A DNA stretch of 61,756 nucleotides, filler included, from Dugesia japonica (lineage: Eukaryota), in the NCBI GenBank assembly GCA_001938525.1. It is 6 parts of 6 records of this genome, joined end to end, with 100 filler letters (N's around TTAATTAATTAA, not from the genome) between each part and the next. Parts side by side here need not be neighbours in the genome. Positions count along the whole stretch, not along the records: positions 43,293 to 52,477 come from MQRL01641609.1; 5 more parts are not named here. One strand, written 5' to 3'. This document shows positions 48,088 to 51,975 of this stretch, piece after piece. Under the pieces are notes generated by a model. The model was not told where the DNA came from and made no database searches. It saw only the letters and a program-made list of their open reading frames with translations. Position 1 is the first letter of the stretch. Each line of letters begins with the position of its first letter. The position numbers were made by a program, and so were the translations under genes.

Positions 48088-49794
48088 CTACATATCTCCG
48101 CCGGCCCTTCTCTTTGAGGCACCGGCTCGCACCACCGCTTTTGGTGAATGCAAATATTTGTCTGTTAACTCTAATAACTTATTTCCGATTTTTGGCCTCG
48201 CAAATTGTCTTTTTCTCGCTTTTACATACAAAATAACTGTAATTATTAAAAACATTACTCCGATTATGCCTCCAACTCCTCCAATAAGTCTCATTGACCA
48301 TCCATCTTCCGCCTTTGAAATCCACATCATAGTCGTAGTCAACGTGATGTTCTCTAATTGTTTCAGCTCCTCCAGTTTGATTCTGATCTCGTTAGTTCTT
48401 GCCATTTTTTCCATTAATCTTTCGATAACATCGTTTTTTTCCTGATTCAATACTCTTTTCTGGGCTTCTGATCCTTGATTTAGTTTTATTTCTTTTTCGT
48501 ACAGCCTTGTTTGACTTATTTCTCTTTTACTCGTTTTACTGATCTCGGTGATATTATTTGCACCAACCCTTCTCGTCGTTTCCGGTTTTGTTATCTCCTG
48601 ACCCCGTGTCGTTTTAAGTTCACTGATTAATTTGGTTGTTTTTTCCGACGTACTTGTTGTACGCATCATGGTGATTCTGGTTTTCATGGCTTGTTTCGTC
48701 GTCTTAGTTGGTGGTAGTTCCCACACTATCATATATTCCACTTCAAACCAAATTCCATATATCAACTGTATTTCCCACTTTAATTCTTGCTGATTGTCGT
48801 TCCATTTATATTCTTATAACAAATCACCATTTGTCCAATCTTTAAGTGACAGATAATGTCCTATTCTCATATTTTGCTTTCCTTCTCGCAACACTGATAA
48901 GTCCACGAACTTGCCTGCCCAATTTATCTAGATTCCGAGGGTACTTCTTCAGCTATAAGGTATATCGCTTCGTTTTGCCTCAAATTTTTGTCCTCTTTTT
49001 TTCCAAAGTACCTCCTGTATTCTTTCTGGAGTAAATCGCCATAAGTGTGATAGATACGATACTTGTTTCTTAGCACAGTATCTCTCGTTTCTACCCCATG
49101 TTGGCTTGTTCCAATCTCGTATTGAATATAGAATGTGAAAATAGTTGTTGTAATAAATACTAAAGACTCTTCTAACTTCGAACATTCCCGAATCCTTATG
49201 GTAACTCGACATCCACGATTCCTCTCGATAAGGGTTACTATATATTCCTTCGTATTGTATTAATCGCATTTCCTGGGGTTTTTCTCTTGTTATCTCAAGA
49301 TTCACCTGCCAAGATTCTCTGAATATTTTTACAGTCAACGCGTGACCTTTTACCTGGATGCCGGGTTGTACCCATGAAAACGGAGCTCCATATTCCGTTT
49401 CTGTATAATGACCTCCTTTTGTCATCACACGACTCAATCCTTTTCTTGTTATCGTCTGCATCTTGACATCGAATCTCGTTAAATACATTCGGTGTTCTGT
49501 ATGCACATTCTCATAATCATAGCATTCCTCACCATTAATGACTCGGATCATAATTATAATTATCAACATATAAATCCACAAATTTCGTGAAACCAACATT
49601 TGACTTGCTCCTCTGGGCGCTTCCATTTCGATTTCTCTTCGTCTGTCTGCTTTTTCTCTTTTTAACTCGACCGTTCGCAAAATCAATGACATTACTATTG
49701 ATGTTAATATAGCTGCTATTAGTATTATTTTCCAATACTTGTTATTCTCAGTTTTGCTTTGATTCGTGATTATGGTCTGATTCGCTGTCCACAT
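48088..49794 (-). pseudogene. Type-I membrane protein: TM/signal, ectodomain, Thr-rich stalk, coiled coil, TM anchor
   Basis: IYMLIIIIMIRVING-EECYDYENVHTEHR..TITRKGL; TKTT/TSTSEKTT stalk; LIGGVGGIIGVMFLIITVILYV followed by KARKR. Confidence 0.65.
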
Positions 49795-51018
49795 ATTTTC
49801 ACTTTGAATTACTTAAATCACTATTAATGCCAATAGCACATACAACCATTTATTCATTATTTATCCAGTTTTATTTGATCCACTTGTTGCTGTCGCATTT
49901 TCATGTTTCTCGTATAATTTTGTAGCCTGAATTCCAATCTTTGTGGGCCATGCCATTGCAACGATGGTGATAATACACACTATTAATATTATTATTGGTA
50001 TCGATGCAATAAATGTCCACGCCATTTTCTCCCATCGTCTTCCGAGTGACAACTTTTTCGTTGTTACTACATCCTTTTTCTCGATTTCATAGATTAGCTC
50101 AATTACATCCGTGATTATTTCTTCATAGATTCCATTGCCATCTATTATTTCTGGTATTTCTGGTAGATCCATATTTCGTCTCATTTGCTCATCTTCCGCT
50201 TCCATTTCCTCAAGCTCTTAACGCTCTTTCTCGATTTCTTTTTGTTTCCATTCTTTATATCGCTCATCATGTTGCCATTTCTGTTGGACTTCTATCCATC
50301 GTGGTAGCATATCTTCTGGCTCCTCTTCACACCATTTTGTGCTGTCCCACTGATCCTCTGTGTCATATTCAAACTTTTTGCACCATGTGGTTAGATTCCA
50401 CTGATTCATGACTTTGTCTGCCGCTTCCATTTCTTTTCTTTTCCAGATTCGATATTTCTCAGTATTTCTTAATTCTTTGTAAATTCTCCACCATTGGAGT
50501 GACACTCCTTCGGGATACTCTTCACAACCTTTCATAATGTATCTCTCTTCTTCAGTATCGTAATCAGTTTCTTGGTCGTTCTATGTTGTCTCAAACCAGT
50601 TTGTTTGGTTGCTCCATGTTTTACTTCAATTGTTGCTATTATCTGCCGTTTCTGATTGTCTGGTTAATATAAGTTTTTCATAATCGTTATCACTATCTTC
50701 GTCCTCCGATTTAATTTTTGCATTTGTATTACACCGTCTCGGTGTCTGTCGTCTTTTGTTTCTCTTTATCCGACTTCTTCTCTTTCTGCTCTTTACTTTT
50801 TGCTGCAGTCTTGAATCGCTTTTCTCTTTGTTCTGTTCAATTTCTCATTTCTTCATCAGCTCTTGACATTCTATCTTTAATGTTTGCAAGAAAAGTAGCG
50901 AGCCGTCTCGATTTTAAACCTCGGTAAATGCTTCGAATCGTTTCCACATTGCTACGATTTTCTGTCCGTTTTCAGCTCTTTAACCTTCTCATCTGTGTCT
51001 TCTATGAAATCCATCACG

Positions 51019-51975
51019 TCATCTCCTGAAAACGTGTTCTGCTTTATCTCTTGATTCTGGTTTGTTTTGTTCTCTGCCTTCGGTTGACCCGTCGTTTCCA
51101 ATGCTGTTCTTTGTTTTTCTAGAGTGTCGAATACTTTTTTTACCTCTTATCATCTCCTTAACTGCTGTTTCTTTGTTCCATAATTGTTTTTCACTGTTTT
51201 TCATATAATTGTCCGTAATTATCGACAGAAGATCACCCCTTTCTTTTGAAAAGTCGACGTCCTCGTCGATTCGAGGTTGCCACTTGCTATGAGAAGGCTT
51301 TTCTTCCATTTTTCGTTGAGCCATTACATTATGTAATTCGTTAACTGTTTTCTCCAATTGACGTCTCATTACTTCTGCACATGTTAAACGTAATTTTTTG
51401 AATACTCTATTTGGTATTGGCAATTCAATTAATTCATCTTCTACTTTACATCTGATACATTCTCAATTATCTTGTACTGATTGGCTCATCAACCAATTTC
51501 TCTTCTGTACTATTATGATTAGCGAGTCTTTGACTTCAATCTCCGTCTTTTGAAAACATCTATCACATAAATTTGCTAATTCTTCTGCTGCTATCGGACA
51601 TTTAGTTGTTTTCTTTAATACGCATCGATTACACTTCTTGATTTCTGGCTGCTCGTGATTCATATCTATAATCTCCCATATTTTATCTTCAGCTTTTTTC
51701 AGTTGTAGTTTCATTATTATTAAACATTTTAGACGGGCTCTTTTTAAATTGTTTTCCGTTATTACGATCCTGGATTCAATTCGCTCTTTAATACAATATC
51801 TGCATTTAATTTCACTTTGCATTTGGCTAGTGATTAATTCTCGTTTCTTTTGCTCGACGTTTATCCATGATAATTGAATCTCCGTGCGTAGGTTACGTTG
51901 ACAACGTGCGCATAATTTCTTCGTTTTGGACATGTCAATTGGACATTTTCTAGGTCTGAAATTTTTACAATCAAA
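51019..51975 (-). pseudogene. Tandem duplicated Cys-rich accessory domain
   Basis: KCPI..LCARC..CRYC and KCPI..LCDRC..(stop)ECIRC..IELPIPNRVFKKLRLTC. Confidence 0.65.

Follow-up and report, generated by a model that had tools for sequence, protein, structure and literature searches.

Introduction

Burro elements make up a large part of planarian genomes. In the available portions of their description these giant Ty3/Gypsy retroelements have the order BCL2-like domain, mononegavirus-like env, protease (PR), dUTPase and reverse transcriptase (RT), and carry cargo of the BIR, BCL2-like, MATH and SUMO-like types (PMC6431247). Errantiviruses with a GAG-ENV-POL order and an envelope protein of the HSV/gB type are reported, in the parts of the survey consulted, from Platyhelminthes, Nematoda and Bryozoa; nine are from flatworms, six of them from Schmidtea mediterranea, and span 14.5-18 kb (PMC13524379). 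Excerpts of two further papers describe additional membrane proteins, namely the transmembrane (TM) open reading frame (ORF) 3 products of bdelloid Vesta elements (PMC5408684) and the sORF2/FAST-like proteins of MDG1-group elements (PMC11952523). Here we analyse an accessory cassette in a stretch of 61,756 nucleotides from Dugesia japonica (assembly GCA_001938525.1; the window), at 48088-51969 on the minus strand, which has a diverged counterpart at 5837-8629 on the plus strand.

The assembly is AT-rich and fragmented, and the window consists of six of its contigs, unrelated to one another and joined via N-TTAATTAATTAA-N linkers. The two copies of the cassette are not neighbours, since they lie on different contigs, 5 and 1, separated by such linkers. 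An earlier note, made from the sequence by eye, had assigned them to a family of giant retroelements with a second surface protein besides the fusogen. Our analysis leads us to think, with moderate confidence, that a giant Ty3/Gypsy element of Burro-like type has decayed here and that the cassette is its 3′ accessory region, probably comprising two genes, of which the second (ORF-B) may encode an attachment partner of the fusogen.

Results

The two cassettes are collinear homologs

The regions 48088-51969 (-) and 5837-8629 (+) are collinear homologs at the protein level. Comparison of 47000-52476 with 1-8629 by tblastx gave collinear high-scoring segment pairs (HSPs) with a sum E of 1.4e-6 for seven HSPs; at least one of the seven (47604-47410) breaks the order and is probably noise. 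The same regions have no nucleotide likeness by blastn (best E 0.04), and the protein likeness between the contigs is only ~25%. The motif pair on which the homology was first suspected is conserved, with ECYDYENVHTEHR..TITRKGL at 49527-49435 (-), inside ORF 48949-49812, and ECWVNEPVLTEHR..TISRSGL at 7698-7790. Over the first ~180 aa of the ectodomain the Smith-Waterman (SW) score is 100, while 500 shuffles gave a mean of 37.6 and a maximum of 61; the Cys unit scores 91 against a shuffle maximum of 63. In pairwise comparison the two copies give E values of 7e-6 and 1.8e-4. When the ectodomain is scored against 750 six-frame tiles of the window its contig-1 counterparts take the top two places (100 and 75; next 53), and those of Cys repeat 2 take the top three among 756 tiles (91, 91 and 62; next 49). 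For Cys repeat 1 the contig-1 counterparts merely tie with noise. With the head and the Cys domain each topping their controls and the HSPs collinear, the gene order proposed for both copies is borne out.

Other likenesses seen by eye fared less well. The match of YGIWF with LGIEF at the end of the head is not significant, since the C-terminal ~90 aa score 25 and 817 of 1000 shuffles score as high; MAFFT pairs YGIW with IGYW, not with LGIEF. Hydrophobic segments do precede the head in both copies, but their sequences do not align (495 of 500 shuffles score as high), and those with a hydropathy (KD) of at least 1.2 number two in contig 1 and four in contig 5. The Thr-rich stalk is clear in contig 5 (32% S+T), while the contig-1 stretch has just 26 residues before the contig edge ends it. 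The parts said to be added in contig 5 are present, as a coiled-coil-like stretch judged by eye, a TM anchor and a basic tail.

Putative ORF-A carries a duplicated Cys-rich domain

The two Cys-rich units that had been noticed are tandem copies of a single ~110-aa domain, duplicated in both elements (in each, 0 of 1000 shuffles scored as high). Repeat 1 against repeat 2 gives SW scores of 122 within contig 5 and 79+79 within contig 1, and the contig-5 repeats match each other by tblastx with E 4e-9. Repeat 2 of contig 5 scores 62 against contig-1 repeat 1, and against contig-1 repeat 2, which is split over two frames, 91 and 45 for the respective pieces. AlphaFold (AF2) applied to five Cys-repeat pieces predicts two long helices with the Cys clusters at their ends (pLDDT 67, pTM 0.30), and a fold search with this predicted structure gave no informative match. 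A counterpart of the charged middle region was not found in contig 1. Read in this way, ORF-A would encode a cytosolic protein in which the tandem pair of Cys-rich, helical and probably Zn-binding repeats is followed by a charged region, with a membrane anchor at the C-terminus.

Topology favours two ORFs

Over its 1301 codons frame 51990-48088 contains 15 stops, whereas the remaining five frames contain 46-114. A hydropathy scan of the contig-5 cassette picks out five hydrophobic segments. Segment 1 (50013-49945, KD 3.08) is preceded by five basic residues and followed by two N-glycosylation sequons; segment 2 is signal-peptide-like, and the next 24 residues carry two sequons. Six of the 15 residues after segment 3 are basic, the head begins with an acidic stretch after segment 4, and of the 15 residues behind segment 5 (48288-48223, KD 2.59) seven are basic and none acidic. 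A Met at 49857 lies two codons after the stop at 49863. If this stop divides two ORFs, and only then, all five segments obey the positive-inside rule and all six sequons from the ORF-A TM segment onward are lumenal. Consistency of both patterns requires the stop to be native, and the charges and sequons of the sequence thus favour two ORFs.

ORF-B (~590 aa, from 49857) would be a secretory-pathway precursor cut twice by signal peptidase, at sites placed by eye. One of its products would be a small membrane peptide. The other, a type I membrane protein of ~480 aa, would comprise a beta-rich head, a mucin-like stalk, an oligomerising coiled coil (likewise judged by eye) and an anchor. In both copies the head lacks sequons, and its one Cys pair is conserved. 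Structure prediction by AF2 from two sequences supports the beta-rich call, being all-beta at low confidence (pLDDT 34.6), but no fold was recognised (Foldseek TM <= 0.18). The small product, with its 24-aa piece, TM segment and six basic residues in 15, fits a FAST/sORF2-like layout, which is a generic pattern; it starts with MNKW and a signal-like segment, and the N-terminal myristoylation motif MGxxxS/T is absent.

At a threshold of E < 0.001, searches against Pfam, NCBIfam and PHROG assigned the cassette to no family. As a class I/III viral fusogen ORF-B has no Pfam match, while PF24664 detects the contig-1 env, and it has two Cys only; nor did profile searches reveal similarity to any host receptor family. 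Public collections are poor in flatworm proteins, so such blank searches are weak.

Contig 1 has a Burro-like domain order

Contig 1 links the cassette to env and pol. It carries, in order, a weakly matched BCL2-like region, env, protease, a dUTPase-like domain and RT, and then the cassette behind a deleted pol. The RT has a profile match at E 3.5e-18, and the dUTPase-like domain (PF00692, E 0.007) is below the cut-off, in the expected place, and 32% identical to that of P0004. The latter, a metagenome protein (JGI) from an 8154-bp contig, has an env C-terminus, a ~350-aa linker, PR, dUTPase-like domain and RT in one open frame. At 53% identity in env and 63% in RT it is an independent relative, and the contig-1 RT groups with it at 100/98 in a tree of 31 rows (29 of them dereplicated from 64 usable of 80 loci). 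After the break in RT a GPGRPRK/HSYPLRS stretch, which we take to represent motifs typical of the pol C-terminal tail, leads directly into Cys repeat 1 with the A-rich strand bias unchanged. Both cassette regions have a GC content of 33-44% and an A-rich coding strand, against an unskewed background of ~25% GC. Contig 1 begins mid-ORF, and its pol is internally deleted and broken.

Since its order equals that given for Burro in the accessible text of PMC6431247, we call the element Burro-like. Membership is most likely on the strength of domain order. The proposed family of giant retroelements with a fusogen is thus upheld through contig 1, on which the link rests; set against the described giant flatworm Gypsy elements, it agrees with Burro in order by description, and the RT grouping is with P0004 only.

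Two further features of contig 1 may be mentioned. The BCL2-like region, directly before env, has BH3/BH1/BH2-like motifs by eye and is frameshifted. The tandem aspartic proteases (3704-4138 and 4358-4700, +) are 29% and 56% identical to the single protease of P0004, and may reflect duplication or recombination between subfamilies.

Boundaries of the contig-5 copy

The last codons of ORF-B overlap a G-rich purine tract and a TGTAG at 48092. This site ranks first of the 149 TGT sites on the contig strand by upstream G count, a score picked after the site had been seen. DNA and RNA reads of four runs were mapped over 45500-52476 at 85% likeness; summed depth on the contig is no direct copy number, and dips in it are flagged unreliable. 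Across 48092 the summed depth rises from 930 through 4,496 to 16,935, ~18-fold over two bins, as expected for the edge of a long terminal repeat (LTR). A polypurine tract (PPT) and LTR start at this point are likely from these signals, and together the site and the depth step point, independently of contig 1, to a retroelement on contig 5, in which 48088-51969 would have lain between pol and the 3′ LTR. The ORF at 46852-47643, downstream of the candidate LTR start, may be encoded by the LTR itself, and four RNA reads of a relative partly touch it.

At the other end a Polinton integrase breaks off at 51970, where the cassette begins, and loose read ends occur at 51970, 52017 and 52061. Insertion, recombination or misassembly could each have produced the junction. 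Depth over the fragment at 52000-52476 is 7-9e5, and some RNA reads fall on it. The cassette has no match in the Polinton remnants on contigs 4 and 6.

Copy number and decay

In run X1 head and stalk have a summed depth of 930-1,500 and the Cys/TM part one of 5,000-32,000, whereas copy-identical pieces have 21-32. Run X6 has the same pattern, with 327-7,900 against 8-13. The plain reading is of a high-copy repeat with tens to hundreds of diverged copies. The top 40 of 564 rows of difference sites include 19 near-fixed ones in the cassette. Two of the 19 coincide with stop codons of this copy, where other copies thus differ, so that these two stops, at least, are its private decay. Both copies are broken, and this subfamily is silent or rare in both RNA libraries. 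High copy number, the lack of introns and the lack of a family match agree with the view that this is not an ordinary host gene.

The summed depth at 48296-49460 is 5-20-fold below both flanks in two DNA runs, such dips being flagged unreliable, and the first ~25 residues of the head fall in a high-depth bin, unlike the rest of head and stalk. Head and stalk are possibly a hypervariable or swapped module.

Features of the window

The coordinates are collected in Table 1. Three Polinton/adintovirus-like remnants are present, at 31750-35226 and 52862-60677 (-) and at 51970-52476 (-), with integrase (rve, E 5e-11), A32-like ATPase, adenain-like protease and double-jelly-roll capsid. Those of contigs 4 and 6 are collinear homologs, and the contig-4 genes are surrounded by a pair of 92-nt inverted repeats (29373-29464 and 35265-35356, 5.8 kb apart). 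Elsewhere there are fragments of an ordinary Gypsy RNase H/integrase zinc finger (14521-15366, -) and of a MULE transposase (25655-25996, -). A 76-nt near-perfect hairpin beside a 65-nt duplication at a scaffold gap (44827-44986) is likely an assembly artefact.

Table 1. Coordinates of the cassette, its counterpart and adjoining features in the window
Feature	Position	Strand	Remarks
Contig 5 (cassette copy under study)	43293-52477		cassette on minus strand
Polinton/adintovirus-like fragment, integrase N-terminus	51970..52476	-	motifs by eye against contigs 4/6; outside cassette
Cys-rich repeat 1, ORF-A	51637..51969	-	C-x7-CP-x10-CxxC-x32-CxxC-x22-C; 5′ end cut at Polinton junction
Cys-rich repeat 2, ORF-A	51277..51651	-	one in-frame stop at 51465
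Charged/acidic, Trp-rich ORF-A middle	50014..51276	-	several stops; local frame change near 51135-50970
C-terminal TM of ORF-A (segment 1)	49861..50013	-	basic N-side; then 28 residues, two sequons, stop 49863
Putative ORF-B start	49537..49857	-	Met 49857; two signal-like segments (the first with one internal stop) enclosing 24-aa piece, TM and basic loop
Head domain, ~270 aa	48721..49536	-	16% aromatic, predicted beta-rich; two Cys shared with contig 1; interrupted by three in-frame stops
Thr/Ser-rich stalk and coiled-coil-like segment	48316..48720	-	two sequons
TM anchor and basic, putatively cytosolic tail	48088..48288	-	TM 48288-48223; stop 48090
Candidate polypurine tract	48093..48115	-	directly before TGTAG at 48092, candidate 3′ LTR start
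Decayed coiled-coil ORF, ~260 aa, inside candidate LTR	46852..47643	-	no family matched
Contig 1 (comparator copy)	1-8629	+
BCL2-like region, split over two frames	759..1200	+	Pfam PF00452 E 0.14 on C-terminal piece, sub-threshold
gB/mononegavirus-type fusion glycoprotein (env), broken	1316..3204	+	PF24664 E 8e-32 and 3e-45
Two aspartic proteases, dUTPase-like, RT	3704..5570	+	RT cut at catalytic motif; RNase H, integrase absent
Contig 1 Cys repeats region	5837..7112	+	repeat 1 5876-6274; low-complexity linker; repeat 2 6709-7112, frameshifted
Contig 1 hydrophobic segments, then homologous head	7420..8629	+	head from 7695 to contig end
N-TTAATTAATTAA-N linkers	8630-8729, 17208-17307, 27239-27338, 43193-43292, 52478-52577

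Discussion

The anatomy of ORF-B, with its signal-like segment, head, mucin-like stalk, TM segment and basic tail in the last ORF before the likely PPT/LTR, agrees with the suggestion of a second surface protein, while no fold, homolog or RNA read was found for it. Attachment proteins are typically built in this way, their head carried on a mucin-like stalk and coiled coil, and encoded in the env slot. This slot would be free because the class III fusogen of the family sits inside the gag-pol polyprotein. ORF-B would most likely reside on the same membranes or particles as the fusogen, as an attachment or tropism partner. By analogy attachment seems the likeliest role, ahead of host modulation; it is speculative, and even if the rest of our reading is granted we would put it somewhat short of an even chance.

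Several observations weigh against the reading we prefer. Contig 5 has no gag, env or pol and bears a Polinton fragment on its 5′ side; neither an LTR pair nor a target-site duplication is visible there, and among the contig pieces listed none spans the Polinton/cassette junction at 51970. On contig 1 the BCL2-like region has no PDB or NCBIfam match besides its sub-threshold Pfam score, and the Cys ORF enters the hydrophobic segments without a stop, a one-ORF layout with ambiguous topology. In the head two Cys only and no sequon are unusual for a viral glycoprotein. Homologs of the cassette domains were found neither in 5.8 billion proteins or 1.84 billion representatives nor among the metagenome or viral contigs searched. 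In a SEG-filtered all-against-all comparison of the 36 frames of the window the cassette pair falls short of E 1e-3. Lastly, 47364-51790 drew no RNA reads from either of two libraries, of which 10.5 million records (6% of the run) and 11.6 million (25%) were covered.

The shortfall in the filtered search, at ~25% similarity, is what might be seen with a family of ordinary host genes, or by chance, and blanks count for little where collections hold few flatworm proteins. Yet the head and the Cys domain, separate and collinear, both outscore their controls, and high copy number, 15 stops, a retroelement-like strand bias and the absence of introns and of any Pfam, NCBIfam or PHROG family at the threshold used make this origin extremely improbable. 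The cassette might instead be Polinton/adintovirus cargo or a free-standing repeat, contig 1 being a chance chimera. Its contig-5 copy does adjoin a Polinton integrase fragment on the same strand, in a contig that lacks pol; against this, the integrase ends at 51970 and reads there continue into other sequence, Polinton depth is 20-900 times that of the cassette, the remnants on contigs 4 and 6 lack it, and a PPT/TG site stands at its 3′ end. We regard such an origin as very improbable. A processed polyprotein had also been suggested, and for this the processing would hold inside ORF-B, whereas for a chain of the whole cassette, from Cys repeats to anchor, with the stop at 49863 as decay, the charges and sequons fit a split better. 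That 51990-48088 is nearly a single frame, that contig 1 lacks a stop from Cys repeat 2 to the hydrophobic segments and that Burro fuses accessory ORFs into polyproteins, in the text as available (PMC6431247), all speak for one chain. However, its four segments would leave a cytosolic head and a segment 3 that breaks the positive-inside rule, a Met follows the stop after two codons, and contig 1 is ~1.2 kb shorter there, so that its fusion may be a deletion; a single chain is on this evidence unlikely.

A different role within the same element and anatomy is that ORF-B modulates the host and takes no part in entry, by receptor interference or superinfection exclusion, as a decoy, or as a cell-adhesion effector. 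Class III proteins of the rhabdovirus and chuvirus type bind and fuse alone, and the low depth over head and stalk, itself an unreliable dip, would suit a variable or dispensable module. Such a role is also in line with the Burro cargo of BIR, BCL2-like, MATH and SUMO-like domains in the accessible description (PMC6431247), and the IAP region of Burro1 is reported, second-hand in the part consulted, to protect stem cells (PMC13465017). Position in the env slot, a head-on-stalk build and the lack of similarity to any host receptor family point the other way, and we consider this role rather unlikely. The most elaborate form of the attachment reading would make Burro-like elements complex endogenous viruses with two-component entry, comprising a gag-pol class III fusogen, a fast-varying attachment protein in the env slot, a FAST/6K-like peptide from the same precursor and a further LTR ORF; as a whole this is doubtful.

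Were a second surface protein conserved, this would suggest that the elements pass from cell to cell in the manner of complex viruses, binding and fusion being left to separate proteins, and could explain tissue-specific behaviour of subfamilies. The cassette also offers two orphan domains, the Cys-rich helical repeat and the beta-rich head.

How does the locus compare with known systems? Like Burro/GYPSM1, contig 1, and it only, has a gB/mononegavirus-like env upstream of PR-RT with a dUTPase-like domain between. Accessory ORFs are also shared, and the available text notes, for one planarian species, fragments that have decayed through stops and frameshifts (PMC6431247). It differs in having two protease domains and no RNase H or integrase. 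Burro elements exceed 25-30 kb and have a multi-kb LTR pair, while the contigs here are of 8.6 and 9.2 kb; Burro elements also have gag, BIR/RING, MATH and SUMO-like domains, RNase H and integrase, and a single in-frame ORF1 of ~4,900 aa; contig 1 begins mid-ORF, with its pol broken. In the portions of text available only ORF1 and an upstream accessory ORF are annotated, and neither a post-pol Cys-repeat protein nor a second type I membrane protein appears (PMC6431247). A second surface protein in such retroelements was not found described; Grohme 2018 and Lee 2026, outside our search, may already draw these ORFs, because the ~25-kb interior of Burro leaves ~10 kb beyond ORF1.

The gB-type errantiviruses share a class III env upstream of pol, as seen on contig 1 (gag was not seen), and the parts of their survey consulted deal with gag, env and pol only, at an LTR spacing of up to 14 kb, and report no post-pol ORFs (PMC13524379). 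Vesta ORF3 and the sORF2/FAST-like proteins, from the excerpts cited above, are likewise extra Ty3/Gypsy membrane proteins of unknown homology, sometimes downstream of pol, and the predicted small ORF-B product resembles the latter in its short ectodomain, TM segment and polybasic stretch. As described there, these proteins replace env and have 60-230 aa, whereas the ~480-aa type I product of ORF-B would coexist with a class III fusogen; the absence of a myristoylation motif sets ORF-B further apart in layout.

In paramyxo- and pneumoviruses, and with herpesvirus gD and gC, attachment glycoproteins are separate from the fusogen. ORF-B would share with these a head on a stalk or mucin region beside a separate fusogen, an analogy with no match in sequence or fold; the paramyxo- and pneumovirus attachment proteins are type II and ORF-B would be type I. 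No retrotransposon with such a division of labour between binding and fusion was found in the literature searched. Most likely the element belongs to a known, Burro-like family, and what is apparently undescribed is the cassette as a 3′ accessory region with two orphan domains.

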